From positions 32,886-96,885 of the forward strand of contig CAZOYW010000007.1 in the NCBI GenBank assembly GCA_964584165.1: a DNA stretch of 64,000 bases, given 5' to 3'. Source of the stretch: an uncultured bacterium (GTDB lineage: Bacteria; Auribacterota; Erginobacteria; Erginobacterales; CAZKCI01). Below the pieces are notes generated by a model. The model was not told the DNA's origin. It worked only from the letters and a program-made list of their open reading frames with translations, and ran no database searches. Position 1 is the stretch's first letter, and each line of letters starts with the position of its first letter. Positions 11,203 through 61,704 of the stretch are shown here, piece by piece. The position numbers were made by a program, and so were the translations under genes.

Positions 11203-11289
11203 GCCGGGAAACCGCCAATGGGCGCGGGGCGGCCAGCCGTCCGATTCGTCGGATCCGACCGATCCGTCCGATCGGAGCGCGCGGCCGGA

Positions 11290-11410
11290 CGGGCCCGGCG
11301 GATGAAACCACGAATCGCGCGAATCTTCACGAAAGAGCCGGGGCGCTATGCTCCATGCGCGCGGTTGGGCCCGGCGGATGGAATCGCAAATTACACGGAT
11401 TTCATGGAGG
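11290..11410. repeat. intergenic ACGAAT-heptad repeat element (locus A); tandem units beginning GGGCCCGGCGGATG
   Basis: ccacgaatcgcgcgaatcttcacgaa with about 10-bp phasing. Related arrays at 50841, 54381, 58350 and 60583. Confidence 0.5.
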
Positions 11411-37060: not shown

Positions 37061-39037
37061 CTAGAGTTTCCAGACCAGGAGGCCCACCAGCGCCAGGACG
37101 ATCCCCAGTATATAAAGGTTCAAACGCCCGTGCTGAAGGAGACGGAGCCGGGCCAGGAGCCCCCCCATGATCGAAAAAATCGGACGGTAGACGCCCTCCT
37201 GGTAGAGATCGGGCGTTTCGCTGGAGAAGGAGGATGACGCGGGGAAGAAACCCATGGGCGGAACGAAACGGCGGCGGGTGCGCAGGAAAACGCGGAACAT
37301 CCGCATCAGGGGATCGGCGAAGGAGGAGGCGGTGTATTGCATCCGGGGCGACGGCGCGATGTAGCCGCAGTCCCAGGTGACGGAGGCGCTCACCTCCCGG
37401 CCGCGGAGAAGGCGGTCTCGCGCCCAGTAGAGAAGGAGGGCAAGGCCGATCCCTCCCGTCGCCACCGCCGCGATCATGGTCAAGGCGTCGCCCACGCCCG
37501 CCGGGGCCGAAGACAAGCCGGCCACCACGCCGACCGCCGGCTGGAGGAATGGGATGATGAACGACCCGCCGAGGCCGATGGCGGCGCAGGTGGTCGCCAG
37601 AATCGCCATCGGCATCTTCATCGCCCCTCCCGATTCATGGGCCGCGGCGGACGCGGAGGAGCGCGGCTCGCCGAGGAAGATCACGCCGAAGGCCTTGACG
37701 AAGCAGGCCACCGCCAGTCCCCCGATCAGTGCCAGCGCGGCGAGGCCGATCATCCCGGCGAAAACCGTCCCGACGGGTTGGCGGCTGGGCTCGGCCACGG
37801 CGCGCAGGGAGGACAGGTAGATCAGGAACTCGCTCACGAAACCGTTGAGCGGCGGCAGTCCGCAGATGGCGGCCGAGCCGACGAGAAAGGCGAGTCCCGT
37901 AGCCGGCAACCGCTTGAGGAGTCCGCCGAGATGCTCGATATCGCCCGTCCCGGCGGCGTGGATGACCGACCCGGCGGAGAGGAAGAGGAGGCTCTTGAAG
38001 ACGGCGTGGTTGATCACGTGGAGGAGCGCGCCGGCCAGGCCCAGAAAGGCCATGGCCGGAGAGCCGTAGGAAATCCCCAAGAGGCCGATGCCGATACCGA
38101 GCGCGATGATCCCGATATTTTCGACGCTGTGGTAGGCGAGGAGGCGCTTGAGGTCGTGCTGGGCGAGCGCGAAGAGGACGCCCAGGACGCCGGAGACGAC
38201 GCCGATGGCGACGAGCGACCAGCCCCACCAGGGAGGCGGCGTCCCGAGAAAGGTGAGAACGCGCAGCAGGCCGTAGATCCCGGTCTTGATCATGACGCCG
38301 CTCATCACGGCGGAGACATGGGAGGGGGCGGCGGGGTGGGCCTCGGGGAGCCAGACGTGGAGGGGAATGAAACCGGCCTTGGCGCCGAAGCCGACGAGGG
38401 CGAGGAGGAAGGCCGCTCCGGCGAAGCCGGGGAGGGCGGCGGCGCGGGCGAACCCGCTGAACTCCAGGCCCTCCGCTCCCCGCCCGAGCAGCGCGAAGAG
38501 GGCGAGCAGGAACGCCGCCCCGATGTGGGCGGCGATCAGGTAGATCCAGCCGGCCCGGCGAACGCCGGCCTTCTCGCTGTCGAACATGACCAGGAAGAAG
38601 GAGGCGATCGACATCGCCTCCCAGGCGAGGAGGAAGAGGAGTCCGTCGCGCGCGAGCACCACCAGGAGCATGCTGGCGGTCAAGAGGTGGAAGAAAAACC
38701 AGGAGGCGGCGATGTCCCTCTTCCCCTCCCGGTCCCTGAGGTAGGCCGACCCGTATATCGCCGAGAGAGCTGTTATGGCGAGTATCGGGAGCGCGAAGAC
38801 GGCGGAGAGGGCGTCCAGGGCCAGGAGGATCGATCCGAATGGCATCGACCAGCCGAGGCGAAGGACGCCCAGAGAGTGTCCGCTCAACGCCATGAGGACC
38901 GGAGGGAGGCCGAGGAGAGCGGCGGCGACGGCGACCGCCGGCCCGACGACCCGCGTCCATGACGGACGGCCGATCGTGGCCAGGCAGAGGAACGCCCCCC
39001 CGAAGAGGACACTAAGAGCCGCGACGATCCAGATCAC
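37061..39037 (-). CDS. NuoL/MrpA/HyfB-like antiporter-type membrane subunit
   Basis: 658 aa. KAGFIPLHVWLPEAHPAAPSHVSA motif. GTG start overlapping the upstream stop. Confidence 0.8.
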   Translation of the reverse strand: MIWIVAALSVLFGGAFLCLATIGRPSWTRVVGPAVAVAAALLGLPPVLMALSGHSLGVLRLGWSMPFGSILLALDALSAVFALPILAITALSAIYGSAYLRDREGKRDIAASWFFFHLLTASMLLVVLARDGLLFLLAWEAMSIASFFLVMFDSEKAGVRRAGWIYLIAAHIGAAFLLALFALLGRGAEGLEFSGFARAAALPGFAGAAFLLALVGFGAKAGFIPLHVWLPEAHPAAPSHVSAVMSGVMIKTGIYGLLRVLTFLGTPPPWWGWSLVAIGVVSGVLGVLFALAQHDLKRLLAYHSVENIGIIALGIGIGLLGISYGSPAMAFLGLAGALLHVINHAVFKSLLFLSAGSVIHAAGTGDIEHLGGLLKRLPATGLAFLVGSAAICGLPPLNGFVSEFLIYLSSLRAVAEPSRQPVGTVFAGMIGLAALALIGGLAVACFVKAFGVIFLGEPRSSASAAAHESGGAMKMPMAILATTCAAIGLGGSFIIPFLQPAVGVVAGLSSAPAGVGDALTMIAAVATGGIGLALLLYWARDRLLRGREVSASVTWDCGYIAPSPRMQYTASSFADPLMRMFRVFLRTRRRFVPPMGFFPASSSFSSETPDLYQEGVYRPIFSIMGGLLARLRLLQHGRLNLYILGIVLALVGLLVWKL

Positions 39038-39750
39038 TCCTGGACGGCTCCTTCCTCCCTGTTCCCGGATGGGCGATGCGGGATGCTGCCGTCGACCAGA
39101 GCCGCGGCGGCGGCGATCTCGGCCCGGCTTCCGCGGCGGGAGATCGCATCGGAGAAAGCGGGATGGCGCAGCGCGAATGACAGCCGGGAGAGAAGATTCA
39201 GATGGGCCGAGATGGTGGGAGAGACGATCATGAAGATCGTGTGGACCGGTTTGCCGTCCAGAGAGCCGAAATCGATCGCTTTCTCCAGGAAACAGAGCGT
39301 CACCATCGGCTGGGGGATGAACATGACGATGGGGTTGCGGACATGGGGGATGGCGATCCCTTCGCCGATCCCCGTGGATCCCAGCGACTCCCGGGCCAGG
39401 AGCACGCGCAACAGGAACATCCGGTCGACTTCCTTCGGGAGCGCCATCATCTCGATGGCGGTTTTCAGGACCGAATCTTTGTCATCACCCTCCACCCGGT
39501 AGTGAATCCCCCCTGCCTGGAGGGCTTCCGCCAAGGAAGGGAACGGCACCTTGTCGCGGTCGGGGTCGGAGAAGATCTCGGTCGAGACGTTGACGCGGTG
39601 GGCCGTCGCCCATTCCAGGAGCTCGGCCCGGTTGATCCGGTATTGCTCGTTGATCTTGAAAACCGGGAGATTGTTCCCCTTGATCCACCGATAAACGGTC
39701 TTCTCCGACACGTTCATCAGCTCGGCTGCTTCTCTGACCCCTATCTGCAT
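39034..39750 (-). CDS. HTH (MerR/excisionase-type) DNA-binding domain fused to PTS EIIA(Fru/Ntr)-type domain; first gene of the Ehr-like operon
   Basis: N-terminal MNVSEKTVYRWIKGNNLP HTH. C-terminal EIIA-2-like domain with GIAIPH active-site His motif. Confidence 0.6.
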   Translation of the reverse strand: MQIGVREAAELMNVSEKTVYRWIKGNNLPVFKINEQYRINRAELLEWATAHRVNVSTEIFSDPDRDKVPFPSLAEALQAGGIHYRVEGDDKDSVLKTAIEMMALPKEVDRMFLLRVLLARESLGSTGIGEGIAIPHVRNPIVMFIPQPMVTLCFLEKAIDFGSLDGKPVHTIFMIVSPTISAHLNLLSRLSFALRHPAFSDAISRRGSRAEIAAAAALVDGSIPHRPSGNREEGAVQE

Positions 39751-41396: not shown

Positions 41397-41435
41397 TGGT
41401 CCGACTACATGTTCGATATCTCTAGATATTACTCC

Positions 41436-42790: not shown

Positions 42791-42817
42791 TGTTGTTTTG
42801 ACTCCTTTTTATGCGTA

Positions 42818-42853
42818 TCCGCCTGTCAAGCAACCAGATGCCGAAGCCTAACC
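42818..42853. repeat. 36-bp direct repeat R2, immediately 3' of the PHP-SMC ATPase gene
   Basis: See R1. Confidence 0.6.
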
Positions 42854-42863
42854 GCGCATTTAT

Positions 42864-45845: not shown

Positions 45846-45970
45846 CTGATAACTATAGTCCTCCAGTTGCTTGTTCGCGATATATTCAGATCCCGAATAT
45901 TGCCCATTGCCATATAATTTCCCCGATATTTACGCTAGGTATAGCTATAATTTGAGGTTATCATCCAATA

Positions 45971-46417
45971 TTACAATTTCTGAATCCATTTCGCGAAATC
46001 GGATTGTGTCTTCTTCCCTACTGCAACGGATCCCCCGCGGGTAAAATGTTTGCTTCCCGCTATCCAAATGTATCCGCCAAAATCAGATGGAAGAAATAAA
46101 TCCCCATATTGAATCATGGCTACCTTTTCTTTCCCGAAATGGCCGAAGAAATAGCCAAACTCAAACATAACATTCAGATTTGGGATGTTCTTTTTCTGTT
46201 TCTTGATTATCGTTCGGGATTCCGGAGAGAAAACAAGCAAGGCTCCTTGCACTTTCGCGCGGATAGAGTCTAGTTCTTCCAGTAAGTTTCTCCCGGGAGT
46301 AAACGCATCCCACCACGGTAAGAAGGAGACAACATTTGAGGTTAAAGCTTTGACAATCGCTTTGGCTTGGGACCTGGCTGCCGACGACGAACCGATGAAT
46401 AGCTTTATTTCTGGCAT
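45971..46417 (-). CDS. TIR-like domain protein (COG4271/PF10137-type predicted nucleotide-binding TIR-like)
   Basis: 148 aa KLFIGSSS...PWWD.F..G...L..L......GALLVFSPE...NVMFEFGYFFGHFGKEKV...LPSD.GG pattern. Confidence 0.55.
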   Translation of the reverse strand: MPEIKLFIGSSSAARSQAKAIVKALTSNVVSFLPWWDAFTPGRNLLEELDSIRAKVQGALLVFSPESRTIIKKQKKNIPNLNVMFEFGYFFGHFGKEKVAMIQYGDLFLPSDFGGYIWIAGSKHFTRGGSVAVGKKTQSDFAKWIQKL

Positions 46418-46530
46418 ATTTGTTCCTCCCTTCCATTGTTTAATTTCAGATATTATTTGAATACGTAGGCCAACGTCCTAACCTACTTTAACCTATCCAT
46501 AAGCGCCGAACGAATGGTATGAATATTCAT

Positions 46531-46896
46531 CTATTTCAGAACAATGGATAGAATACCCACAAGTAGCCCTATAATGCTTGCAATCGCTCCCCAAGTTTGT
46601 AGATTTACATCAATCTCGGGATATTTATCTCTAATATATTTCGCCAATATAATACCTCCAACGCAGGAACCCCCTACAAGAACAAGCAGGAATGCTGTCT
46701 TGATCAATATTGGGCCTATATTATAGCTTGGCAAAGGTGTTCCTAGCGAAGATTCCCAAATGTAGACTATTGGCCGAACAAGTGCTCCATGCCGCGTTGC
46801 AGGGAAAAACACTGCTAATATTAGCAATAATAGCAATACTGCAATTGTGCACAAACATCCAAACTGATCTGTTTTATTAAAATTGCTTCTAAACAT
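46531..46896 (-). CDS. small membrane protein (3-4 TM)
   Basis: 121 aa. Hydrophobic segments CLCTIAVLLLLLILAVFF, AFLLVLVGGSCVGGIIL, AIASIIGLLVGILSIVL. Confidence 0.45.
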   Translation of the reverse strand: MFRSNFNKTDQFGCLCTIAVLLLLLILAVFFPATRHGALVRPIVYIWESSLGTPLPSYNIGPILIKTAFLLVLVGGSCVGGIILAKYIRDKYPEIDVNLQTWGAIASIIGLLVGILSIVLK

Positions 46897-47013
46897 AAAT
46901 ATGCCCTTTTAGTTTCAGCGAGATATGCTCGCTAATATCGACACCGCCTCTGCCAACGTCCTCGACCGCTTCAACCTGTTCATAAGCGTCAGGCAGGGGA
47001 CCTGACTACCTGA

Positions 47014-47817
47014 CTACAGTGCATTTGCCAATGTCTTCGCCCGGATCAGCCGATCCAGCAAAGCCAGGCGCGGGGCCTGGATATTGACCTTCGGCGAGGA
47101 ATCTACCGGACCAACCCTCTTGGGGCGGCCTTTGAGCAACACGATATATTTCCCTGACTTGCGCCAGGGCTTGATCTTCCGGATGCGGCCATAATGGGTC
47201 ACTTGCTTGATGGGCGAGGTAAGGTAAATCGCAAGGTATTTCAGCCTCGGGATGACCCGCTTGGAAAGGCGGATGGCATACCAACGGTTTTTGCCCAGGA
47301 ACTCCTTCTCGAACCCATCCTTGTGAGCCGGGCAGACAAGCGTGTCATACTCCCCTCTTCGCCGGCGGACATCACAGCTTGAAGATACCTTCTTCGGAAC
47401 GCCTCCGGTGATATCAGCCAACTCGCGCCGCTGGGACTGAACGATCCGGCTCTTGAACACCCGGTAAAGATCGCGCGAGGCGGTGATTTTCCCTGAAACC
47501 CGATTCCCTTTGGGCGAGGCTATCCTCAGAACCAGCGACTCAAGCTCCCGCAAATGCTCGTCGCCCTGAGTCAGATAGATGCTGAACCGGTCCCATTCCT
47601 CGGCATGGCGATCCTTGAGGTGGCCATGCAGCCTTGATCGAAGGTTCCGGGCCAGGCCGACGTAGTAGAGGCTATCCCCGGCATAAAGAGCATATACCCC
47701 GCTCTTCCCCCGGGCGAATTCGGTAATGATATCCGGATATCTTTTTATCGCCGTCCGGGCGATGTTCTCCAAATGCTCGACGACGAGCGGGGCTTTCCCA
47801 ATCCGTTTTCTTCTCAC
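47014..47817 (-). CDS. GIY-YIG nuclease-domain protein with ~170-aa C-terminal domain
   Basis: GVYALYAGDSLYYVGLARNLRSRLHGH (GIY-YIG). Cys/His pair CDVRRRRGEYDTLVCPAH. Degraded copies of its 3' end elsewhere in the island. Confidence 0.6.
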   Translation of the reverse strand: MRRKRIGKAPLVVEHLENIARTAIKRYPDIITEFARGKSGVYALYAGDSLYYVGLARNLRSRLHGHLKDRHAEEWDRFSIYLTQGDEHLRELESLVLRIASPKGNRVSGKITASRDLYRVFKSRIVQSQRRELADITGGVPKKVSSSCDVRRRRGEYDTLVCPAHKDGFEKEFLGKNRWYAIRLSKRVIPRLKYLAIYLTSPIKQVTHYGRIRKIKPWRKSGKYIVLLKGRPKRVGPVDSSPKVNIQAPRLALLDRLIRAKTLANAL

Positions 47818-48078
47818 TTGGCATCTCCTTTCACAATCCCAATCGCTTCCTCCGTCAGTTCAAATAGCTCATAATGACCGAACTTGTACAGGCGGGAAGG
47901 TTGCGCTCGAAGACTTCGACCAGGCGTTGGATCTTGTCCGAGGCGGGCATGGTCTATACCGGAGGGTTGTTTATAATCATACAAATCCCCGTTTTCCAAT
48001 TCCATAAGATATTCCATTACATAATATATTCCAGTTCCCCCCTCCCTCCTATTCATAGCCCCCCCCGCCTGCTCCCCC

Positions 48079-48463
48079 TGGGACACTTCCTGTCCGATCG
48101 GACAAGGTTTGTCCACTTTTGATCGGGAATGGAGGATTTCCGGCCCCCCCAACCCAGCATTGATCTGGGACAACTCGTGTCCGATCGGACAGGGTTTGTC
48201 CACTTTTGAGCAGGAATGGAGGGTTTCTGGCCCCCCCAACCCAGCATTGATCTGGGACAACTCGTGTCCGATCGGACAGGGTTTGTCCACTTTTGAGCAG
48301 GAATGGAGGGTTTCTGGCCCCCCCAACCCAGTATCGAGCTGGGACAACTCGTGTCCGATCGGACAAGGTTTGTCCGTTTTTGATCGGGGAACGAGGGCTT
48401 TTCCTGCTCCAAACCCACCCATTGAGTTGGGACAACCCATGTCCGATCGGACATGGGTTGTCC
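48079..48463. repeat. array of five ~87-bp tandem repeats, each containing the perfect palindrome TGTCCGATCGGACA (last unit a perfect 36-bp palindrome)
   Basis: gggacaactcgtgtccgatcggacagggtttgtcca...cccccccaacccagcattgatct repeated. Lies in the divergent region between the GIY-YIG and PaaX-like genes. Confidence 0.85.
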
Positions 48464-48567
48464 CAATGTCGTCTCCTGATGAGTTCATTGCCCTTGAAAT
48501 CTCTGCAAGAAATATCCGTTCAAAAGAGTCCTTATAGTAGGGCGGGCAATGTCCGCATGAGCGCCGA

Positions 48568-49356
48568 TTGCCCCTCCATCGCGGAGACGCGCGGATGCCA
48601 ACCGTTGCCGAAGATATCCTGATGCTCCTCGCCGAGGGAGCGTTCCGGCTCCTGACTTTCCGCTCCCTGTTCACGCTCGACTGGGGGTTCAGCTCTCCGG
48701 CTTATCGCAAAACGATCACCCGGCTCGAAAAAGACGGCGCGGTCCGGCGGGTGCAACATAGACGCGACGTGTATCTTCATCTCACCGATCGAGGCAGAAA
48801 AATTCTGGAACAACGCCGTCCTCCCCCGAGAAAATCCCCGCCGACCTGGGATCGTCTCTGGCGGCTGGTGATCTTCGATATCCCGGAGAAAAGAAACGAG
48901 GACCGCCTTCTGCTCCGTCGGTATTTGACGGCATCGGGGTTCGCAAAAGTGCAAAAGAGCGTTTGGATCGCTCCCTATGACCGCGAAGAACAAGTGCAGG
49001 AGTTCACCCGAAAAATCGATATCCAACGCTATGTATTGCAGCTGACGTTTAAAAAATTCCGCAACCTCGAGGAGCGGGATTTAGCCGCGTCGTTCTGGGA
49101 TATCCAAGGTCTGCAAGTTCGCTACCAGGAACTGATCCAACGCTACGCGAAAAGAATGGCCGTGCTCCCGGCAGGGACAAGGGGGGCGGCGATTGGGCGC
49201 AGACAGTTCTTGAACGATCTGCTCTGGGATTACCAAACTATCCTGGCCTTAGACCCTCAACTGCCGACCGAGCTGCTTCCGGCGAACTGGAGCGGCGCGG
49301 CCGCGAAGCAGTTCGTGAATCGCTGCCGCACCCTTTTCTCCAGCGGCCCTGTGTAG
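48568..49356 (+). CDS. PaaX-family winged-helix transcriptional regulator
   Basis: WDRLWRLVIFDIPEKRNEDRLLLRRYLTASGFAKVQKSVWIAP matches the PaaX C-domain consensus. N-terminal wHTH. The start may be ATG 48595. Confidence 0.6.
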   Translation: MPLHRGDARMPTVAEDILMLLAEGAFRLLTFRSLFTLDWGFSSPAYRKTITRLEKDGAVRRVQHRRDVYLHLTDRGRKILEQRRPPPRKSPPTWDRLWRLVIFDIPEKRNEDRLLLRRYLTASGFAKVQKSVWIAPYDREEQVQEFTRKIDIQRYVLQLTFKKFRNLEERDLAASFWDIQGLQVRYQELIQRYAKRMAVLPAGTRGAAIGRRQFLNDLLWDYQTILALDPQLPTELLPANWSGAAAKQFVNRCRTLFSSGPV

Positions 49357-49385
49357 CGCAATCCGGATATGCGTTGTTGCACGCT

Positions 49386-49507
49386 CGGACAACTTCTGTC
49401 CGATCGGACAGGAGTTGTCCCGATGAAACCAGGTTTTCGGGAGGCAGTTTCCCCCTCTTTCATGCTTGGATTTGGGACAAATCCATCCGATCGGACAGGT
49501 TTGTCCC
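49386..49507. repeat. two further 34-36-bp palindromes of the TGTCCGATCGGACA family, 3' of the PaaX-like gene
   Basis: cggacaacttctgtccgatcggacaggagttgtccc and gggacaaatccatccgatcggacaggtttgtccc. Confidence 0.8.
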
Positions 49508-50821: not shown

Positions 50822-50840
50822 GCGGCTTAGCCCGGCGAAG

Positions 50841-50953
50841 AAAACCACGAATCACACGAATCTTCACGAATAGCCCCGCCCCGGCGCGCGGACCTGAAGG
50901 TCCGCGCCTACGGGATCGCGGATTGCGCGAATCAGACTTGGAACGAATTAACC
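50841..50953. repeat. ACGAAT-heptad repeat element (locus B)
   Basis: aaccacgaatcacacgaatcttcacgaat ... gcggattgcgcgaatcagacttggaacgaat. Confidence 0.5.
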
Positions 50954-51845: not shown

Positions 51846-51955
51846 TCTTCGCCCCCGCCCTCCCGGGCGGGGGCGAAGTTCAGGGTTGAACCCTAGCCCG
51901 GTTTATGGATAGGCCATGCATTTCAGCGGAGAGCGCAGTTTGCACAATGTCGCTC

Positions 51956-51986
51956 GTCCCGATCGAATCGAAGATTCGATCGGGGG
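51956..51986. mobile_element. partial copy of the CCCGATCGAATCGAAGATTCGATCGGG palindrome family
   Basis: Same core as 39854-39881. Confidence 0.4.
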
Positions 51987-53026: not shown

Positions 53027-54367
53027 ATGGCGGCGCCGTTCAAGGCTTACGATATCCGCGGAATCTACGGAAAGGACGTCACCGACTCATTGGCCTACGA
53101 CCTGGGGCGGGCCTTCGCGAACTACCTCCCGGGCAAGACGGTCGTGGTCGGGCGGGACATGCGCCCCGCCGGCGAGACCCTGCAGAAAAACCTGGTCCAG
53201 GGGCTGACCGAGCAGGGGGCCAAGGTCATCGACATCGGCTTGGCCTCAACCGACATGTTTTACTTCGCCGTCATCGCGAAAAAGGCGGACGGCGGGGTGA
53301 TCATCACCGCCTCGCACAACCCGGCCCAGTACAACGGCTTCAAGCTGACCCGGGAGAAGGCGATCCCGATCGGGATCGATTCCGGCCTGGCTGAGATCGA
53401 GAAGACCGTCCGCGCCGGCCGCTTCCCGGAAGCGGCCCGGAAGCCCGGGAAGGTCGTGAAGTGCGAGATCTTAGGCGACTTCATCGCCTTCATGCACGGC
53501 TTCGTCAAGCCGAAGGAGCTCGCGCCCCTCAAGGTCGTAATCGACTGCGGCAACGGCATGGGCGGCCTGGTCATCCCCAAGCTGCTCGCGGGGAGCCCGC
53601 TTAAGATCGTCCCCCTCTACTTCGAGCTCGACGGGACCTTCCCCCACCACGAGGCCAATCCCCTCCTGGAGGAGAACCGCCGGGACCTGATCGCGGCCGT
53701 CCTCAAGGAGAAGGCCGACCTGGGGATCGGCCTGGACGGCGACACCGACCGGGCCTTCTTCGTGGACGACACGGGCGCCTTCTGCTCGGCCGATTTCATC
53801 CTCGGCCTGCTCGCCAAGCCGATCCTCCGGGCCCATCCCGGGGCCAAGATCGCCTACGACGTCCGCTGCTCCAACTACGTCCGCGACACCGTGAAGAAGT
53901 ACGGCGGGACGGCCCACATGGGCAAGGTGGGCCACGCTTATGCCAAGATCTTCATGCGCGAGATCGGCGCCGAGTTCGGCGGCGAGGTCAGCGGGCACTA
54001 CTACTACAAGTACCAGGACGCCTTCTTCGACAGCGGGAACCTGACCTGCCTCCTCCTCCTCAAGGTCTTAAGCGAGAAGAAGGAGAAGCTCTCGGCCGCC
54101 TTGGCCGAGACCAGGAACTACCACATCAGCGGGGAGATCAACTCCACGGTCAAGGATCCCGACGCCGCGATCCGGCGGGTCCTGGAGGGCTTCCGGCCCC
54201 GGGGCAGGCTGGTCGAGATCGACGGGGTGTCCGTGATCGGGCCGACCTGGTGGCTGAACGTCCGCAAGTCCAACACCGAGCCCCTGGTCCGGCTGAACTG
54301 CGAGGCCGACAGCAAAGCGAACATGGAGAAGCTCCGGGACGAGGTCCTGACTCTGATCCGGGCCTGA
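53027..54367 (+). CDS. phosphoglucomutase/phosphomannomutase (alpha-D-phosphohexomutase family)
   Basis: AYDIRGIYG; active-site TASHNP; AAAGGAG RBS. Confidence 0.85.
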   Translation: MAAPFKAYDIRGIYGKDVTDSLAYDLGRAFANYLPGKTVVVGRDMRPAGETLQKNLVQGLTEQGAKVIDIGLASTDMFYFAVIAKKADGGVIITASHNPAQYNGFKLTREKAIPIGIDSGLAEIEKTVRAGRFPEAARKPGKVVKCEILGDFIAFMHGFVKPKELAPLKVVIDCGNGMGGLVIPKLLAGSPLKIVPLYFELDGTFPHHEANPLLEENRRDLIAAVLKEKADLGIGLDGDTDRAFFVDDTGAFCSADFILGLLAKPILRAHPGAKIAYDVRCSNYVRDTVKKYGGTAHMGKVGHAYAKIFMREIGAEFGGEVSGHYYYKYQDAFFDSGNLTCLLLLKVLSEKKEKLSAALAETRNYHISGEINSTVKDPDAAIRRVLEGFRPRGRLVEIDGVSVIGPTWWLNVRKSNTEPLVRLNCEADSKANMEKLRDEVLTLIRA

Positions 54368-54380
54368 CGCGGCCGGGAAA

Positions 54381-54510
54381 AGAAACCACGAATCCCGCGA
54401 ATCTTCGCGAATATGTCCGGCTGGGCCCGGCGACCGAAAACGCGGATTAGCGCCGGCCGACCGGCAGGGATTCCACGGATTGATCGCGAACGATTGATCG
54501 CCGCCGGGCT
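54381..54510. repeat. ACGAAT-heptad repeat element (locus C)
   Basis: aaccacgaatcccgcgaatcttcgcgaat ... cacggattgatcgcgaacgattgatcg. Confidence 0.5.
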
Positions 54511-54538: not shown

Positions 54539-57112
54539 ATGCAAAAATGTCGTTGCTTTACCGGTCTGATCGCGCTCGCCGCCCTTGTCCTCGCCGGAAA
54601 GGCGGAAGCGACCGCCTGGCAGACCCAGAACCCCATCCCCACCGCCAACAACTTCAACGACGTTTACTGCCTCCCGGGCGCCCACGTCGTCGCGGTGGGG
54701 AACGCCGGGGCAATCTTCCTCTACGAGCCGGGGGAGGCCGCCTGGCACTATCTGACCTGCCCGCCGGAGGCGAACTACAACGGCGTCTGGGGCGACACTC
54801 CGAATAACATCTACGCGGCCGGGCGCGGCCAGGGCGAATACAGCGACGGGGCGATCTACCACTACGACGGCTCCTCCTGGTCCCAGGTCCATTTCGTCCA
54901 ATACAACCAGATCTACGACATCTGGGGCGCCGACGGCGCCTCGGTCTACGCCGTGGGCGACGGGGGGACCGTCCTCCGCTACAACGGGTCGTCCTGGTCG
55001 GCCATGGACATCGGCACCGCCCAGACCATGCGCGGGGTCTGGGGGCTGGCCGCGAACGACGTCTACGTCGCCGGGAGCGCCAAGGTCCTCCACTACAACG
55101 GATCGAGCTGGTCCGAGATGACCAGCGACTCCTCCGGCGGCTTCCAAGACATCTGGTGCGACGCCGCAAACAACATCTACGCGGTCAAGGACACCGGGAA
55201 GATCTTCCACTACAACGGTTCCACCTGGTCGGTGGCGACCGCGGTCACCAGCGGAGGGTCGAGCGTCTCCCTCTCCGCCGTCTGGGGCGCGGGCGGAGAG
55301 GTCTACGCGACCGGGAGCGGCAATCCGGTGGTAGTCTTCCGCTATGCCTCCGGCTCCTGGGAAGCGATGGAGAGCGGTACCGCCAAGCCCCTCAACGGGG
55401 TGCACGGACTGAACACGGGCGACGTCTACGCCGTCGGAGAAGACGGCAGCGTCGTCCACTACGCCGGCTCCTCCTGGTCCTCCCTCCCGAGATGGAACGA
55501 CAGCAATTTCTACGGCGTCTGGGGCTCCTCGCCCACCGACGTCTTCGCCGTGGGCTGGCGGGCGAGCGGGGCGGGCGGCGTCGTCCTCCACTATGACGGA
55601 ACCGACTGGTCGGAGATGACCATCCCACCCTACGGGACCTTCAACCAGCTCGAAGGGGTCTGGGGATCATCCTCCTCCCAGGTCTTCGCTCTCGGCAACA
55701 AGATCTACCTCTACAACGGCTCCGGCTGGACCGAGCAGACCGAGATCACGCCCGCCCAGGTCTACGCGGCCTGGGGGTCTTCCCCCACCAACGTCTTCGC
55801 GGTCGGCTACGTCGCGTCCTACGAGGGGGGAGTCTTCCGCTACGACGGAGCGAACTGGACCGTCTCGACCGTCATCCCCTACACCCTGCGCGACGTCTGG
55901 GGATCTTCGGGCACCGACGTCTACGCCTGCGGAGACCATAACCAGATCATCCGCTTCGACGGGAACCAGTGGACGGTGCTCACCGACGGCGACGCCGCGA
56001 CCGGCTGGTCCGGGATCTGGTCGGGAGGGAGCGGTTCCTTCTACGCGGTCGGCTCCAACCTGAACAACGACGACCTCCTCCTCCACTACGACGGGGGGGT
56101 CTGGACGCTGAAAAGCGACTTCCACTTCGCCAACTTCAGCCGGATCTGGGGCTCCTCGGACTCCGACCTCTTCGCCGTCTCCACACCGATCGGGACGAGC
56201 GACAAGGTCTGGGGGCGGATCCACCACTACGACGGCCGTTCCTGGGCCGAGTCGCCGACCTACTGGGAGAACGGCTTCAACAGCGTCTGGGGATCGTCCG
56301 GGACCGACGTCTTCGTCGTCGGCGACGGGGGGTCCATCCTCCACTACGGGGGCGGCCGGCTCGTCGCCGAGAAGCCGAATTGGATCTACGACTACGACGG
56401 CGACGGCACCTCGGACATCGCCATCTTCCGGGGGACGAACGGGATGTGGTCGATCCGGAACCTCACCCGGGTCTACCTGGGGAACTCGACCGACGAACTC
56501 GTCCCCGCCGATTACGACGGCGACGGGACGACCGACCCCGCGATCTTCCGGGAATCCGCCGGCCTCTGGTCGGTCCGCTCCCTCTCCCGCTTCTACCTGG
56601 GGGCCACCGACGACCGCCCCGTCCCCGGCGACTACGACGGCGACGGGACAGCGGAGGCGGGGATCTTCCGCCCCACGGCGTCGCTCTGGTCGATCCGGAA
56701 CGTCACCCGGGTCTATCTCGGCGGATCGGACGACGTCCCCGTCCCCGGCTGGTACGACGAGGACGGCGCCAAGGACATCGCCGTCTTCCGGGGAGAGAAC
56801 GGTATGTGGTCGGTGCGAAACCTGACCCGGTTCTACTTCGGGAACTCGACCGACGATCTCGTCCCTGGCGACTACAACGGCGCCGGTTTCTGGGAGGCGG
56901 GGATCTTCCGCCCCTCCTCGTCGATGTGGTCGATCCGGAATGTCACCCGGGTCTATCTCGGGGGCGCGGGCGACTGGGCCCTGCCCGCCGACTACGACGG
57001 CGACGGCGCCGACGACGCCGGGATCTTCCGCGATTCCTCGGGCCTCTGGTCCGTCCGCGACGTTACGCGGGTCTTCTTCGGCTCCAGCGCCGACCTGCCG
57101 GCGACGAGGTAG
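54539..57112 (+). CDS. secreted beta-propeller protein with C-terminal FG-GAP-like DYDGDG repeat domain (paralog 3)
   Basis: Signal peptide. About 14 WG..xxDVYAVGxxGxILHYDGSSWS blades. Seven C-terminal DYDGDGTxDxAIFR...GLWSVRxLTRFYLG modules. Confidence 0.7.
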   Translation: MQKCRCFTGLIALAALVLAGKAEATAWQTQNPIPTANNFNDVYCLPGAHVVAVGNAGAIFLYEPGEAAWHYLTCPPEANYNGVWGDTPNNIYAAGRGQGEYSDGAIYHYDGSSWSQVHFVQYNQIYDIWGADGASVYAVGDGGTVLRYNGSSWSAMDIGTAQTMRGVWGLAANDVYVAGSAKVLHYNGSSWSEMTSDSSGGFQDIWCDAANNIYAVKDTGKIFHYNGSTWSVATAVTSGGSSVSLSAVWGAGGEVYATGSGNPVVVFRYASGSWEAMESGTAKPLNGVHGLNTGDVYAVGEDGSVVHYAGSSWSSLPRWNDSNFYGVWGSSPTDVFAVGWRASGAGGVVLHYDGTDWSEMTIPPYGTFNQLEGVWGSSSSQVFALGNKIYLYNGSGWTEQTEITPAQVYAAWGSSPTNVFAVGYVASYEGGVFRYDGANWTVSTVIPYTLRDVWGSSGTDVYACGDHNQIIRFDGNQWTVLTDGDAATGWSGIWSGGSGSFYAVGSNLNNDDLLLHYDGGVWTLKSDFHFANFSRIWGSSDSDLFAVSTPIGTSDKVWGRIHHYDGRSWAESPTYWENGFNSVWGSSGTDVFVVGDGGSILHYGGGRLVAEKPNWIYDYDGDGTSDIAIFRGTNGMWSIRNLTRVYLGNSTDELVPADYDGDGTTDPAIFRESAGLWSVRSLSRFYLGATDDRPVPGDYDGDGTAEAGIFRPTASLWSIRNVTRVYLGGSDDVPVPGWYDEDGAKDIAVFRGENGMWSVRNLTRFYFGNSTDDLVPGDYNGAGFWEAGIFRPSSSMWSIRNVTRVYLGGAGDWALPADYDGDGADDAGIFRDSSGLWSVRDVTRVFFGSSADLPATR

Positions 57113-57193
57113 CTGGTGGGAGGGGCGTCCCGCCCCGATGGCGAGCCGGGGATCGCGGCGAGACGCCGCTCCCACGGGGCGTGCCCAAAGTCC

Positions 57194-58333
57194 ATGAGCG
57201 CAAAACTCAAGACCCATTTCGCCCCCGCCGAACGGTCGGGAAAGGCCGAGATCGCGCGGCAGGTCCGGGACGTGAGTTCCAGCTCCCTGGTCAGCGGCCT
57301 CCTCGAGACCGCCGCCGGGCTCCTCGCCGTTCTCAACCGCCGCCGACAGATCCTGGCCCTGAACCACGCCCTCCTCGCCGCCCTCCGGGTCCGCGACCCC
57401 GAAGCCGTTCTCGGCCTGAGGCCGGGCGAAGCGATCCGCTGCGTCCACGCGCGGGACATGGCCGCCGGCTGCGGGACGGGGAAGTTCTGCGCCTCCTGCG
57501 GAGCGGCGATCGCCATCGTCTCCTCCCTGAAGAAGCGCCGGCCCGTCGACCAGAAATGCATCCTGACCGTTGCCGGAGGAGGGGAAACCCGCGACCTCTG
57601 CTTCCGAGTAAAGGCCCATCCCTTCCGTGTCCGGAAGGAACCCTTCCTCCTCCTCTTCCTCCAGGACATCAGCGAAGAGGAGCGGCGGGCGGAGCTGGAG
57701 CGAGCCTTCTTCCACGACCTGAAAAACGTCGTCATGGGCATCCAGGGGGCTTCCCAGCTGATGGCGAAGGGGACCGGCGCGGGGATGGCGGATTGGCCGC
57801 AGCAGATCGGCCGGATGGCCTCCCGCCTCCAGGCCGAGATCGCGATCCAGCAGTCGCTCTCCCGGGGGACGCCGGGGAGATACGCGCCCCGGATCGAGGC
57901 GATCCGGGCCGGCGACCTGCTCGCCGAGCTGCGGGAGACCGTCGCCCACCATCCCGCGGCCCGCAAGAAGGTCCTGGTTGTCGGGAAGCCGCTCCCCCGG
58001 CGGCCGTTCCGGACCGACGTTTCCCTCCTCCTCCGCGTGCTCGGCAACATGCTGACCAACGCCTTCGAGGCGACCGAGGAGGGCGGCATCGTCCGCTTCC
58101 GGGCCGAGCTGACGAAGGCCCGGGCGCGATTCAGCGTCTGGAGCCGGGGGGCCATCCCCCCGGCCATCGCGCCCCGAGTTTTCCAGCGCTACTTCAGCAC
58201 CAAGGGGGGGCAAGGGCGGGGGATCGGCACCTACGCGATGAAGCTCCTCGGGGAGGAGTACCTGGGGGGGAAGGTCGATTTTACGTCGTCGCCGGCGAAG
58301 GGGACAACCTTCCGGATCACGCTCCCCGCCTGA
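57194..58333 (+). CDS. sensor histidine kinase with Cys-rich N-terminal sensory domain
   Basis: H-box FFHDLKN. G-boxes GGQGRGIGTYAMKLL. N-terminal CVHARDMAAGCGTGKFCASCGAA. The ORF could instead start at GTG 57116. Confidence 0.7.
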   Translation: MSAKLKTHFAPAERSGKAEIARQVRDVSSSSLVSGLLETAAGLLAVLNRRRQILALNHALLAALRVRDPEAVLGLRPGEAIRCVHARDMAAGCGTGKFCASCGAAIAIVSSLKKRRPVDQKCILTVAGGGETRDLCFRVKAHPFRVRKEPFLLLFLQDISEEERRAELERAFFHDLKNVVMGIQGASQLMAKGTGAGMADWPQQIGRMASRLQAEIAIQQSLSRGTPGRYAPRIEAIRAGDLLAELRETVAHHPAARKKVLVVGKPLPRRPFRTDVSLLLRVLGNMLTNAFEATEEGGIVRFRAELTKARARFSVWSRGAIPPAIAPRVFQRYFSTKGGQGRGIGTYAMKLLGEEYLGGKVDFTSSPAKGTTFRITLPA

Positions 58334-58349
58334 CCCGGCAAATGATTTC

Positions 58350-58541
58350 CACGAATTTACACGAATTTTCACGAATGGGCCCGGGTTAGATCGGGGGCCA
58401 AACTACGAATTGCGCGAATTTCGCGAATTACCTTTGGGATGATCCGAGGACTGGGCTGATCGCGATTGTTGGCATGTTGGCGAGTTATAACTCTGCTAGA
58501 TTACGTTCATATTCTAATTCGCGTAATTCGCGCAATTCGTA
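58350..58541. repeat. ACGAAT-heptad repeat element (locus D): 3 + 3 direct heptads, then 3 inverted heptads, flanking an AT-rich core
   Basis: ccacgaatttacacgaattttcacgaat (exact 10-bp period); ctacgaattgcgcgaatttcgcgaat; ...attcgcgtaattcgcgcaattcgtag. Confidence 0.6.
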
Positions 58542-58551
58542 GTTCCCATTC

Positions 58552-60051
58552 ATGAGCCAAACCAAGAAAACAATAATCCCCCGCCAGAGAATGGCGGAGC
58601 AGGAGCCGCGGAAGCGGATCGGAAACTTCCGCGAGGTCCCCTTCGGCTTTACCCCCGAGCAGGCCCGCCTCGAGTCCGCCCGCTGCCTTCAGTGCAAGAA
58701 CGCCCCCTGCCGGAAGGGCTGCCCGGTCGAGGTCGATATCCCCGCCTTCATCCGCGAGATCGGGGAAGGCCGGACCGCCGAGGCCGCCCGGACCATCCTT
58801 AAGACCAACTCCCTTCCCGCCGTCTGCGGAAGGGTCTGTCCCCAGGAAGACCAGTGCGAGAAGCTCTGCCTGCTGGGAAAGGTCTCTTCCCCGGTGGCGA
58901 TCGGGGCGCTGGAGCGTTTCGCGGCCGACGCTTCGGCGGGCGGCGATGTAGCGGCGCCCGATCGCAGATCGGGCCTACAGGCGGCCTCGACCGATCACGC
59001 TTGTCCGCCAGGGCCCGAAGGGCGACGGCGGAGATCGGGCCTACAGGCGACGGATGCGCGCGCAGGCCGAAAGGTCGCCGTGATCGGAGCGGGGCCGGCG
59101 GGGCTCACCGCCGCCGCCGACCTCGCCCGGCTGGGCCACCGCGTCGTCCTCTTCGAGGCGCTCCACGAGGCGGGCGGGGTGCTGGTCTACGGCATCCCCG
59201 AGTTCCGCCTCCCCAAGGAGATCGTCGCCCGGGAGGTGGAGAACGTCCGGAGGCTCGGCGTCGAACTCCGCCTCGACCAGGTGGCGGGGAGGACCGTCAC
59301 CCTGGACGATCTCCGGGCGGAGGGGTTTCAGGCCTTCTTCATCGCCACCGGCGCCGGTCTGCCTTCTTTCATGTCCATCCCGGGCGAGAACCTGGTCGGC
59401 GTCTACTCCGCCAACGAATACCTCACCCGGGTCAACCTGATGAAGGCCTTCCGCTTCCCCGATTACGACACGCCCGTCGCCCGCGGGAGGCGGGTTTGCG
59501 TCGTGGGGGGCGGCAACGTGGCGATGGACTCCGCCCGCACCGCGCGGCGGCTCGGGGCGGAGTCGGTCGCGATCGTCTACCGCCGGACCCGCGACGAGAT
59601 GCCGGCCCGGAAGGACGAGATCCACCACGCCGAGGAGGAAGGGGTCGCTTTGCGCCTCCTCACCCTCCCCGTCCGCTACCTCGGAGACGGGAAGGGGCGG
59701 CTCCAGGGGATGGAGTGCCTGAAGATGGTGCTCGGCGAGCCGGACGATTCGGGGCGGCGGCGGCCGCTCCCGGTCCGCGGCTCCGAGTTCCGGCTCGAAT
59801 GCGACCTGGCGGTGGTGGCGATCGGGAACGACCCCAACCCCCTCCTGGTCCGTTCCGTCGCGGGGCTGAAGCTGGGGCGGAAGGGGAACGTCGAGATCGA
59901 TCCCGGGACCGGGCAGACCTCCCTCCCCGGGATCTTCGCCGGGGGGGACATCGCCACCGGGGCGGCGACGGTGATCGAGGCGATGGGGGCGGGGAAGCGG
60001 GCGGCGAAGGCGATCGACGCCTACCTAAAAACAGTAACCGAAGAAAAGTGA
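58552..60051 (+). CDS. NfnB/GltD/SudA-type NAD(P)H oxidoreductase (glutamate synthase small-chain family) with in-frame repeat insertion in the linker
   Basis: N-terminal 2x Fe-S Cys clusters CLQCKNAPCRKGCP and CGRVCPQEDQCEKLC. VAVIGAGPAGL and VVGGGNVAMD dinucleotide-binding motifs. Confidence 0.8.
   Translation: MSQTKKTIIPRQRMAEQEPRKRIGNFREVPFGFTPEQARLESARCLQCKNAPCRKGCPVEVDIPAFIREIGEGRTAEAARTILKTNSLPAVCGRVCPQEDQCEKLCLLGKVSSPVAIGALERFAADASAGGDVAAPDRRSGLQAASTDHACPPGPEGRRRRSGLQATDARAGRKVAVIGAGPAGLTAAADLARLGHRVVLFEALHEAGGVLVYGIPEFRLPKEIVAREVENVRRLGVELRLDQVAGRTVTLDDLRAEGFQAFFIATGAGLPSFMSIPGENLVGVYSANEYLTRVNLMKAFRFPDYDTPVARGRRVCVVGGGNVAMDSARTARRLGAESVAIVYRRTRDEMPARKDEIHHAEEEGVALRLLTLPVRYLGDGKGRLQGMECLKMVLGEPDDSGRRRPLPVRGSEFRLECDLAVVAIGNDPNPLLVRSVAGLKLGRKGNVEIDPGTGQTSLPGIFAGGDIATGAATVIEAMGAGKRAAKAIDAYLKTVTEEK
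58966..59050. repeat. 60-bp structured repeat copy B (plus 19-bp flanking duplication), in-frame inside the nfnB/gltD-like gene
   Basis: ccgatcacgcttgtccgccagggcccgaagggcgacggcggagatcgggcctacaggcga, flanked by agatcgggcctacaggcgg. Encodes RRSGLQAASTDHACPPGPEGRRRRSGLQATDA. Confidence 0.75.
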
Positions 60052-60082
60052 TCAGTAATCAGTTACTGATCACTGATCACTT
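60048..60082. terminator. GTGATCAGTAA-TCAG-TTACTGATCAC hairpin overlapping the nfnB stop; convergent-gene terminator-like
   Basis: Perfect 12-bp stem. Same motif as 23414-23463. Confidence 0.55.
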
Positions 60083-60091
60083 CTTTCGCTT

Positions 60092-60538: not shown

Positions 60539-60582
60539 TTCTTCCCTCCTATATCCGCCGCGACCTGACCGGCCGATTATTT

Positions 60583-60698
60583 CCACGGATTGACACGAAT
60601 TTTCACGAATAGATACTATCAGGCCCAACGCTGAATATTCGTGCAAATTCGTGTCAATTCGTGGACAGCAGTCGCCGAGCCATTCGCGGAATTCGTGG
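60583..60698. repeat. ACGAAT-heptad repeat element (locus E): 28-bp arms in inverted orientation plus extra heptads
   Basis: ccacggattgacacgaattttcacgaat ... attcgtgcaaattcgtgtcaattcgtgg ... cattcgcggaattcgtgg. Confidence 0.6.
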
Positions 60699-60699: not shown

Positions 60700-61704
60700 T
60701 TAGAGTTTGACGACCTCGGCCAGGTCGGTGATCAGAAGCGCCCGGCGCTTCCCCCGCTGGGGGGTGGAGAGCTCGACCAGGTCGGCCTTCAGGCGGATCT
60801 TCTCCCCGCTCATCAGGTCACCCCGCATCGCCCCGTGGTAGACGATCAGCTCCATGTCCTCCAGTTTCCGCGCCCCCCGCTTCACGCCGTTGAGCTCCAG
60901 GATCGCCGGCAGGTAGTAGCCGTGCCGGTCGTCGCCGATCGTAGCCTCGACCTTCACCCCTTTCTCGACCACGGACATCTCGCAGGAGAGGATCGGGACG
61001 TCGGCCGGAGACGCGTAGCGGAAGAAGGGGCAGATCAGGGTCCCGGCGTAGTAGAAGCGGAGCGCCCAGACCTTCCCCAGCTCCCGGACCTGGGCTTCGG
61101 GGTGCTCGCGGAGGAAGGAGCGGATCTTCCGGGCGATCCGGTCGTTCTCCTTCGGATCGTTGATGAAAACGATATCGATGTCGTCCTCCACCCGCCCGTA
61201 GCTCATGGAGCCGGTGACTCCGGTCCGGTCGGGGTCCACCTCGAGGAGGGCGCAGGTCTCCCGCACCGCCTTCTCCACCCACTCGTACTCCCGGCGCAGG
61301 AGCTGCATCGAGCGGACGCTGTCGAAATACCCCTCGAAGCCGGAGAGAGGGAACTTGACGAAGTTCTTGGCGTAGGGGGGCTTCGCTCCCTGGAGAGCCC
61401 GGAGCTCGGGGGCGACGACGAACTGGTTCTCCACCTGGCGGTCGTAGGGGATGATGGCGAGCTCCCCGTTCACGTATTCGCGGTGGGTCCAGCTGTAGGG
61501 GCGGCCGAAGACGTCGATATGCCCTTGGGGGTGGGGATACTTGATGATCATCCCCCAGAAGGCACCGGGCGGATGGCAATAGCCCTCGGCGAAGACGAAG
61601 CTTCCCCCCTTCCGGAAGAAGTAAACGCTGTCCATCACCGGCTCCCGGACCTCCGAGATCGGGACGAGGTACTTCCCCACCACACGGTCGAACTGATCGG
61701 TCAC
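60700..61704 (-). CDS. hypothetical protein with nucleotidyltransferase-fold-like motif
   Basis: TGSMSYGRVEDDIDIVFI resembles the GS-x9-DxD motif of Pol-beta-type NTases. Otherwise unrecognised. Confidence 0.45.
   Translation of the reverse strand: MTDQFDRVVGKYLVPISEVREPVMDSVYFFRKGGSFVFAEGYCHPPGAFWGMIIKYPHPQGHIDVFGRPYSWTHREYVNGELAIIPYDRQVENQFVVAPELRALQGAKPPYAKNFVKFPLSGFEGYFDSVRSMQLLRREYEWVEKAVRETCALLEVDPDRTGVTGSMSYGRVEDDIDIVFINDPKENDRIARKIRSFLREHPEAQVRELGKVWALRFYYAGTLICPFFRYASPADVPILSCEMSVVEKGVKVEATIGDDRHGYYLPAILELNGVKRGARKLEDMELIVYHGAMRGDLMSGEKIRLKADLVELSTPQRGKRRALLITDLAEVVKL

Follow-up and report, generated by a model that had tools for sequence, protein, structure and literature searches.

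Short tandem arrays of seven-base units stand at gene boundaries in a 64,000-nucleotide stretch of DNA (the window; contig CAZOYW010000007.1, positions 32,886 to 96,885) from an uncultured bacterium of the Auribacterota, and arrays built in the same way are present in genomes of more than ten phyla and in viral contigs. We could not find this cross-phylum architecture described before, a literature search having returned no relevant paper for the heptad or for six 15-16-mers. By analogy with the BldC protein of Streptomyces, we give a probability of roughly 0.4 to the reading that the arrays are genome-wide polymerisation sites of a winged helix-turn-helix (wHTH) protein of the BldC/Xis type, or of another oligomerising DNA-binding protein.

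Heptad arrays in five intergenic gaps

A preliminary description of the window had pointed to helically phased ACGAAT heptads in five intergenic regions. A direct reading of the sequence together with an automatic scan showed YRCGRAT heptads at all five, in runs of two to three with a period of 9 or 10 nt, and the arrays are real: the exact triple ACGAAT-N2-3-CRCGAAT-N2-3-CRCGAAT occurs six times in the window and not once in 100 dinucleotide-preserving shuffles. Single heptads are not enriched in the window (ACGAAT 32 versus 22.5 expected, SACGAAT 20 versus 15), and the CGAAT core is about sixfold denser in intergenic DNA (3.8 per kb) than in genes (0.63 per kb). The regularity of the period is as described, but the term 'helically phased' is a loose one because 9-10 bp is shorter than the 10.5-bp helical repeat.

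The full unit extends beyond the heptads and reads C(C/T)(C/G)GGC, 8-12 mostly A-rich nt, CC and three YRCGRAT heptads; the opening hexamer may be summarised as CCCGGC, and the heptad period is 9-10, rarely 11 nt. Array coordinates given here run from the CC through the end of the last heptad. In agreement with the earlier statement that the arrays are all intergenic, every real array of the window is confined to five gaps, each between co-directional genes. The flanking genes are unrelated in function and encode a Fer4/CbiA protein, Mrp-NifX, an AIRS-domain protein, an unknown 296-aa protein, phosphoglucomutase, a large repeat protein, a histidine kinase, a GltD-like oxidoreductase, an unknown 334-aa protein and YbjQ.

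Three of the gaps carry arrays on the plus strand. The Fer4/CbiA to Mrp/NifX gap contains a unit at 11286..11334 (array 11308-11334) with leader GGGCCCGGCGGATGAAA, CC and heptads CACGAAT, CGCGAAT and CACGAAA, followed at 11362..11400 by a decayed direct second unit (repeat family D17) with leader GGGCCCGGCGGATGGAAT and heptads CGCAAAT and CACGGAT. After the AIRS-domain gene, whose stop is at 50821, the gap to the 296-aa gene holds a unit at 50823..50871 (array 50845-50871; leader GCCCGGCGAAGAAAA, CC, CACGAAT x3) and a degenerate second array at 50916..50948 (50916-50932 by the scan; CGCGGAT, CGCGAAT ... ACGAAT), which stops 7 nt short of the ATG at 50955 and shows rapid divergence between strains. 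The unit in the gap between phosphoglucomutase (stop at 54367) and the 857-aa gene spans 54364..54412 (array 54386-54412), with leader GGCCGGGAAAAGAAA, CC and heptads CACGAAT, CGCGAAT and CGCGAAT; it is followed by decayed direct units at 54424..54483 (degenerate units at 54441-54483) that read GGGCCCGGCGACCGAAAA-CGCGGAT ... CCACGGAT. The FG-GAP label given earlier to the 857-aa copy found no backing, as Pfam returned no match for it.

The two remaining gaps contain the inverted sets that had been described, and both sets are real. Between the histidine kinase (stop at 58333) and the gltD-like gene (ATG at 58552), array A on the plus strand (unit 58327..58376, array 58349-58376) consists of leader ACCCGGCAAATGATTT, CC and CACGAAT x3. 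It precedes array B (58403..58428, plus strand; TACGAAT, CGCGAAT, CGCGAAT), which contains AATTGCGCG and forms the left arm of a pair whose right arm is the three-unit array B' (58517..58542, minus strand), 9 nt before the gltD-like ATG. The arms of this pair are separated by 88 nt and mirror each other heptad for heptad, TACGAAT, CGCGAAT, CGCGAAT facing their complement. In the gap between the 334-aa and YbjQ-like genes, both on the minus strand, 26 nt separate array A1 (60583..60610, plus strand; CACGGAT, CACGAAT, CACGAAT) from its partner arm A1' (60637..60664, minus strand; CACGAAT x3), which is co-oriented with the genes; a two-unit array on the minus strand (60682..60698; CCACGAAT, CGCGAAT) directly follows the stop codon of the 334-aa gene (60700-60702). 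Predicted folding of both pair regions is much stronger than that of shuffled sequence (z = -6.6 and -5.5), and the stretches 58335-58376 and 60569-60610 are 88% identical, leader included (family D20). An example of a three-unit array sequence is TTTCCACGAATTTACACGAATTTTCACGAAT. AATT followed 3-4 nt on by C or G is present in the arrays at 58349-58428, 58517-58542 and 60583-60664 and in the Bacteroidota matches described below, and many other arrays have only AAT and then G or C.

The first array of each gap points along transcription, co-oriented with the upstream gene, and starts at the stop codon or at most 24 nt past it in four gaps and about 105 nt past it in the fifth (11308). The placement of four arrays upstream of gene starts is correct as described, but the same arrays also begin 12-24 nt after the preceding co-directional stop (about 105 nt at 11308). 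Antisense arrays in this lineage sit just before the next start codon, as B' does before the gltD-like ATG. About one tenth of the intergenic gaps in the window carry arrays. With five array-bearing gaps in the 64 kb of the window and five in 21 kb of a relative (L244), the density is about one per 4-13 kb and the genome would, by extrapolation, hold several hundred array loci.

Occurrence across phyla and conservation in relatives

Searching one genome per species with the triple pattern, we obtained matches at no fewer than 120 loci (at least) in genomes of more than ten phyla. The matches listed include Flavobacterium, Chitinophagaceae, Verrucomicrobiota, Planctomycetota, Acidobacteriota, Chloroflexota, Nitrosomonas, Halofilum, Desulfobacterota, Gemmatimonadota, Cloacimonadota and Spirochaetales, and also one metagenome-assembled Thermoplasmata genome; the main holders among the matches listed are the PVC group (Planctomycetota, Verrucomicrobiota), Bacteroidota, Acidobacteriota, Chloroflexota and some Proteobacteria. 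The strongest internal control is the unconstrained CC: positions -2 and -1 before the first heptad were free in the pattern, and C occupies them in 89% and 95% of 141 bacterial arrays, respectively. In the cross-phylum flank profile of the bacterial arrays the CC is itself preceded by T-T-A-(A/G). Heptads of the same style but other flavour occur at the same loci (CACGGAT, CACAGAT, CACTAAT, CACAAAT, GCAGATT, CGCAGAA, CACGAAA), indicating that the shared feature is the architecture, CC plus three (CRC-D-R-A-W + 2-4 nt), of which CACGAAT is a common flavour.

The CACGAAT pattern also gave at least 143 matches in the IMG/VR viral contigs. Among the matches listed, 86 were short intergenic arrays and 57 lay inside long open reading frames (ORFs), some of the viral matches being (GTN)n-type coding repeats. 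A reversed-heptad control returned 20 loci only across all of IMG/VR; a control with a permuted pattern was discarded as invalid because 142 of its 148 matches were coding repeats with a 9-nt period. In one viral contig (L132), next to a DnaB helicase gene, successive genes each have a sense array immediately 5' of their ribosome-binding site, eight arrays in all. When a typical array was searched against GenBank phages, the only matches were chance ones within genes.

In a Nitrosomonas contig (L035, Nitrosomonas sp., JALRCN010000002.1), near-identical copies of a roughly 175-nt element, of the form aaCC CRCGAAT x3 ... ATTAGYG x3 GGtt, follow one another in tandem. At positions 1-3600, heptad arrays bracket each of several small genes (PDDEXK_3/GxxExxY and toxin-antitoxin-like ORFs), and there is a tandem row of four elements devoid of genes, a layout that superficially resembles an integron cassette array. 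PDDEXK_3 genes adjoin arrays also in L053 and L084, which makes three loci in all. Integron attC sites (RYYYAAC ... GTTRRRY cores following promoterless cassette ORFs) were considered as an identity for the arrays, whose ends often read AAC/C and G/GTT, but were rejected: genes of the window are housekeeping genes that keep their synteny across species, and an arm contains three boxes instead of two.

By crude gene calls, 134 of 145 arrays are intergenic, and their geometry is strict. Two arrays sharing a gap always face inward with their CC ends outward (29 '+-' versus 0 '-+'); the CC end lies near a gene boundary, at the stop if the gene is co-oriented and at the start if it is on the opposite strand, and the other end points into the gap. 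About three quarters of the arrays have no full partner within 260 nt. The gaps used are co-directional in 45 cases, convergent in 13 and divergent in 9, which is not far from random when judged against typical gap proportions and therefore shows that neither promoters nor terminators are clearly preferred. Strand bias is likewise absent from single arrays between co-directional genes of bacteria (13 sense versus 16 antisense), and the association with promoters suggested in the preliminary description is not borne out by these counts. Viral arrays between co-directional genes are sense in 39 cases and antisense in 10, a bias inflated by one phage family that was sampled about 20 times. No gene family is enriched beside the arrays at the 120 genome loci listed, where all-against-all clustering of 516 nearby ORFs returned only ubiquitous two-component systems, ABC transporters and SDR proteins.

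The arms of inward-facing pairs co-vary at heptad position 2, where A-T is seen 130 times, G-C 12 times and a discordant combination twice. At position 4 the partner arm is unconstrained (C 98, A 31, T 10, G 5); mismatches there are G·A in 31 cases versus G·T in 10 and thus not wobble pairs. The spacers between heptads are variable and often non-complementary between arms. The paired arms have terminal repeats of 28-30 nt and enclose 1-205 nt of non-coding DNA, and in most of the 47 pairs analysed the inverted repeat reaches 1-4 nt beyond the CC/GG. Target-site duplications were not found: abutting direct repeats at the 47 pairs equalled those at shuffled flank pairs, and the two window pairs had none.

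Comparison with close relatives allowed us to follow how the arrays change. In two strains of the same species (L121 and L122, about 99.3% identical), B' has two units instead of the three in the window, a clean 9-nt indel, and same-species contigs differ from the window also by point changes within heptads. The syntenic relatives L243 (GltD 91% identical at the amino acid level) and L244 and L245 (81%) have arrays at the same gaps and in the same orientation, and the remaining intergenic DNA is no longer alignable. All four array-bearing gaps covered by the 81% relative retain their arrays with unchanged orientation, and one extra gap has gained an array. L243 carries two units at the site of array A versus three in the window, and a TG spacer in its array B lies opposite AA in B'. 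The heptads of one array change together, from CACGAAT x3 to CGCGAAT x3 or from CRCGAAT x3 to CGCGGAT x3. Positional conservation combined with such concerted change agrees with a tandem repeat that is maintained with turnover by slippage, and not with a cut-and-paste element that is either present or absent; furthermore, heptads that are intact at orthologous sites amid saturated neighbouring DNA imply selection or active renewal.

These data also bear on the suggestion that the arrays belong to a dispersed repeat family such as miniature inverted-repeat transposable elements (MITEs). The pairs do resemble 28-30 nt terminal inverted repeats around short non-coding DNA, but they differ from MITEs in that no target-site duplications and no parent insertion sequence were found, positions are conserved between species, heptads evolve in concert and the 'inverted repeat' is itself tandem. 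The arrays are therefore not classical MITEs, and the wider notion of a dispersed repeat family is supported in part.

Possible protein-binding sites or extragenic repeats

BldC of Streptomyces, a 68-residue MerR/Xis-like wHTH protein (Pfam HTH_17), binds two to four direct repeats of 9-10 bp as a cooperative head-to-tail multimer, with a core of CGAATT/CGGATT and a per-protomer consensus of AATT(N3-4)(C/G). It has 367 targets by chromatin immunoprecipitation and has been discussed as nucleoid-associated-protein-like, and BldC-like proteins have been reported to 'radiate throughout eubacteria'. Its sites include TGTGTCCGAATTGCTCGGATTG in whiI, the optimised TGTCCGAATTGTCCGAATTG and smeA repeats such as CATTTGCAC. 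The arrays resemble these operators in several ways: the 9-mer AATTGCGCG of array B matches the whiI sequence AATTGCTCG at eight of nine bases; both consist of 2-4 (here mostly 2-3) direct repeats of 9-10 bp, variable in number; an AT-rich tetrad followed by C or G, a feature of the BldC sites, is present in some of the arrays, and a CGAATT/CGGATT core is common to both (whiI TCCGAATTGCTCGGATTG versus TACGAATTGCGCGAATTTCGCGAATT in the window); and both would number hundreds of sites per genome, in the case of the arrays by extrapolation. They differ in that the BldC sites, which in Actinobacteria are found at developmental-gene promoters, are degenerate, whereas the arrays are very regular, with a special CC-prefixed first unit, the CCCGGC leader in this lineage and inward-facing pairs at gap edges, and no BldC orthologue is tied to them.

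A second likeness is to the sites of phage excisionase-type proteins, which bind direct repeats and can regulate transcription (e.g. D29 Gp36). The arrays of excisionases or recombination directionality factors (lambda Xis X1-X1.5-X2, phage 186 Apl, P2 Cox, mycobacteriophage D29 Gp36) likewise consist of phased direct repeats, and such a system would suit the layout of L132. These sites differ from the arrays in being confined to the attP or switch region of a single element, with unrelated sequences, and in not being dispersed through host chromosomes. Xis, Apl and Cox are small wHTH proteins that bind phased direct repeats cooperatively and can regulate transcription.

In the mechanism that we propose, each 9-10 bp unit (YRCGRAT plus 2-4 nt) would be the site of one protomer of a small wHTH protein of the BldC/Xis/Apl type, and proteins of this type polymerise head-to-tail on direct repeats. 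Binding would start at the conserved CC-proximal unit by the gene boundary and extend inward over the intergenic DNA, and facing arrays would bracket the whole gap. Such a system may act globally, in a nucleoid-associated, architectural or boundary-like manner rather than as a pathway regulon, given the large share of gaps involved and the unrelated flanking genes. The arrays would turn over by whole-unit slippage, which may account for their concerted evolution, with occasional duplication of the kind seen in repetitive extragenic palindromic (REP) elements. Conserved heptads with variable, non-complementary spacers are better explained by protein contacts than by base pairing, and the absence of strand bias among single bacterial arrays argues against an RNA element tied to one strand. 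That protein binds the arrays at all, which protein this may be and what its binding does are all points that we infer. A more specific version, in which CC-anchored heptad triples form a cross-phylum, phage-shared boundary element that nucleates inward head-to-tail filaments of the wHTH or nucleoid-associated type and so insulates or gates the gap, for instance as a polar roadblock to read-through or antisense transcription, seems to us unlikely.

Several observations weigh against polymerisation sites of this kind. Streptomyces BldC sites are degenerate to the point of not being predictable from sequence, and the arrays are very regular; many arrays have GAATG or GAATC, not AATT; a 9-10 bp period is not exact helical phasing; and no Streptomyces genome is among the first 120 matches listed. 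The co-variation of the arms and the tandem 175-nt Nitrosomonas elements are explained no less well by a REP-like element that forms hairpins or duplicates. The earlier proposal of multimeric repressor-type sites is supported in part, BldC operators being the closest known analogy. The only BldC-type domain in the window is an HTH_17 domain (3e-14) fused to a PtsN-like EIIA domain (1e-24), encoded at 39034..39750 on the minus strand; the protein is a candidate binder only, and no array lies at the promoter of its gene. Searches with tblastn and jackhmmer covering the window and some 2 Mb of array-bearing loci turned up only the HTH_17-EIIA gene and no stand-alone BldC-like ORF, and a homologue search with the HTH domain of this protein gave seven matches, mostly truncated.

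Three intergenic gaps of the window (24640-24671, 39854-39885 and 51954-51985) hold a 32-nt palindrome, CCCCGATCGAATCGAAGATTCGATCGGGG, whose half-site has the same CGAAT core as the arrays; the second copy lies about 100 nt upstream of the HTH_17-EIIA gene. The palindrome is directly preceded by GTGGGAG at 24640 and 39854, with CTCCCAC downstream at 24640, which gives a REP-like hairpin. The relative L244 has an ATCCGCG x3 array in a gap that holds this palindrome in the window.

As the main alternative to binding sites, the arrays may be an extragenic repeat of the kind represented by REP elements, bacterial interspersed mosaic elements (BIMEs) and REPINs, which we regard as somewhat unlikely. 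The inward pair would here be the unit, a long imperfect hairpin copied at a low rate by an enzyme and then inherited vertically, with single arrays as decayed halves and effects on neighbouring genes secondary. Like these families and the terminal inverted repeat (TIR) families of TIRYT, the arrays are extragenic, high in copy number, vertically inherited and often just 3' of genes, and they come singly, as inverted dimers and in clusters, forms that REP and TIR repeats are also described to take. The strictly inward orientation and co-varying arms of the pairs, their strong predicted folding, the tandem copies in Nitrosomonas, the 88% identity between two window arrays that extends into the leader, and the density of array-bearing gaps all agree with such an origin. 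However, a single array is a direct repeat, not a palindrome, and lacks both the GTAG (GT[AG]G) or CGTC tag of palindromic REP units and the GGGGWSAS shared by TIRYT inverted repeats; target-site duplications are absent, and the roughly 2 Mb of array loci contain no Y1 transposase gene; at orthologous sites the heptads are intact amid saturated surroundings; and the heptad is common to more than ten phyla, whereas a REP family is, by published description, mostly restricted to a particular species or lineage. A consensus query did find the TIRYT family of Y1 plus DnaA_C transposases, but the four genes recovered are flanked by other inverted repeats, GGGGTCACATCTTGAC and GGGTCAGRTCTTGAC (GGGGTCAC-type), and not by heptad arrays, and this identity was rejected. 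In Sulfuricella sp. (JAQTMN010000004.1; L255 and L256), two copies of a TIRYT-type Y1 transposase gene have on their flanks both GGGGTCACATCTTGAC inverted repeats and long tandem runs of (A)AAGGGGTCAC / GTGACCCCATTATG, a distinct tandem-unit family tied to a known enzyme. Protein binding and a REP-like origin are not mutually exclusive, since REP elements of E. coli are bound by architectural proteins.

Function at the RNA level appears improbable to us. Paired arrays would then be long stems with a role in mRNA termination, RNase III-like processing or stability, or in placing a stop codon near the next start, and singles would be protein-binding RNA repeats. The first arrays of the window gaps, co-oriented with the upstream gene and mostly close to its stop codon, the strong stems predicted for paired regions and the sense orientation of most viral arrays would suit this role, as would spacers of 2-4 nt, since the RNA sites of TRAP and HutP are repeats with variable spacers. 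The role is weakened by the lack of strand bias among bacterial singles, the viral bias being inflated as noted, and by the lack of compensatory changes, spacers being uncompensated between arms (TG facing AA in L243) and position-4 mismatches not being of the wobble type. Moreover, no U-tract follows the stems and no Rfam 15 family was found at gathering score in the whole window or by E-value scans of 50.7-60.8 kb and L035, where only generic long-hairpin matches to microRNA precursors appeared, far below threshold. Sites for DnaA or for HTH proteins resembling DnaA domain IV are a far weaker prospect still: the cross-phylum flank followed by ACG (TTARCCACG) agrees with the DnaA box TTATCCACA at seven of nine positions, inward arrays resemble the opposed DnaA-site arrays of oriC, and Y1 transposases with a DnaA_C-like domain are common (14.9% of strains), but the differing positions, T4 and A9, are invariant in the consensus TT[AT]TNCACA, the TIRYT genes examined carry unrelated inverted repeats and five loci in 64 kb are incompatible with an origin of replication. 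The regulon put forward in the preliminary description, in which one response regulator or repressor would co-regulate the Mrp/NifX, TonB-like, FG-GAP and gltD-like genes, is already contradicted. OmpR/PhoB-type sites typically consist of direct repeats spaced by about one helical turn, and four arrays do lie upstream of gene starts; however, the arrays abut the upstream stop, often with 85-200 nt left to the next start, their neighbours have unrelated functions, no neighbouring family is enriched at the 120 loci, a tenth of all gaps is involved, and the same architecture recurs across phyla and phages.

Sigma-70 promoters and intrinsic terminators coincide with the arrays only incidentally (e.g. 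TTGACA at the heptad junction at 60590, small CGCGAAATTCGCG hairpins), and sigma-54 and extracytoplasmic function (ECF) promoters, MraZ boxes (GTGGG-N5), parS, Chi, rut, the RNase E consensus and 16S rRNA complementarity fitted poorly by eye. The stoperators of mycobacteriophage cluster A are single 13-bp sites bound by the phage repressor. They resemble the arrays as short asymmetric sites in many small intergenic gaps, and the L132 arrays are likewise oriented with transcription; they differ in that the arrays are triple tandem units found also in host chromosomes. The short tandemly repeated repetitive (STRR) sequences of cyanobacteria, to which no function is assigned, are contiguous intergenic heptamers with a period of 7 that, as the arrays may do, generate spurious ORFs; in the arrays, by contrast, heptads are separated by 2-4 variable nt and the unit number is small and fixed.

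Other elements of the window and implications

The window contains further repeats. STRR-type contiguous heptamers, (G/A)TGATCA / ACTGAT(N) (inverted repeat I1), form hairpins at 23410-23464, 60031-60085 and 11420-11437. The copy at 60031-60085 lies between the convergent gltD-like and YbjQ genes and has a terminator-like score; in relatives, this site is an ordinary GC hairpin in L243 and keeps the heptamer hairpin in L244. The 857-aa repeat-protein gene is followed at 57112-57200 by a GC-rich hairpin, GTGGGAG...CTCCCAC, which is kept in the 81% relative (L244 9752-9830) and resembles GTGG-tagged REPs, so that the genome carries several distinct extragenic repeat families. Another hairpin, GGCGCGCGGAC-loop-GTCCGCGCC, occurs at 31556-31595 and at 50874-50913, the latter copy between the two arrays of one gap, and also in L243 at about 9830. 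Within coding sequence, three large paralogous genes (24795-26474, 27051-30179 and 54539-57112) have internal tandem repeats of 120 nt (40 aa) with D-x-D-G-D-G calcium-binding-like motifs. Three coding repeats of about 71 nt at 6471-6924, starting ATGCCGAGAGGAGACGGAAC..., stand at the starts of small adjacent ORFs near a NifX-like (Nitro_FeMo-Co) gene, which suggests tandem small paralogous genes.

A low-GC island at 39900-49500 (34-57% GC versus 65-70% in the backbone) encodes, all on the minus strand, a RelA_SpoT-domain protein (41436-42482), a 993-aa AAA_21/SMC_N ATPase (42864-45845) and a CAP12/Pycsar-type TIR protein (45971-46417), and is probably a horizontally acquired anti-phage defence island. 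Four tandem 87-nt units, 73-96% identical to a reference copy and each containing the palindrome GGACAAC..GTCCGATCGGAC..GTTGTCC, occupy 48078-48468 just upstream of a PaaX-like gene (48568-49356) whose product has a central Cas2-like domain, and one more copy follows the gene closely, at 49387-49425; since the whole unit is conserved, this is not a CRISPR array.

On a practical matter, the heptad arrays are a compact sequence signature for linking phages to their hosts, and they could be misread as spurious small ORFs and confound the annotation of promoters, terminators and repeats. If the arrays do bind protein, they would mark a large fraction of intergenic regions in Planctomycetota, Verrucomicrobiota, Bacteroidota, Acidobacteriota, Chloroflexota and other phyla that have been little studied, as well as in the phages of these bacteria, which would amount to a global DNA-architectural or gene-boundary system without counterpart in E. 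coli or Bacillus.

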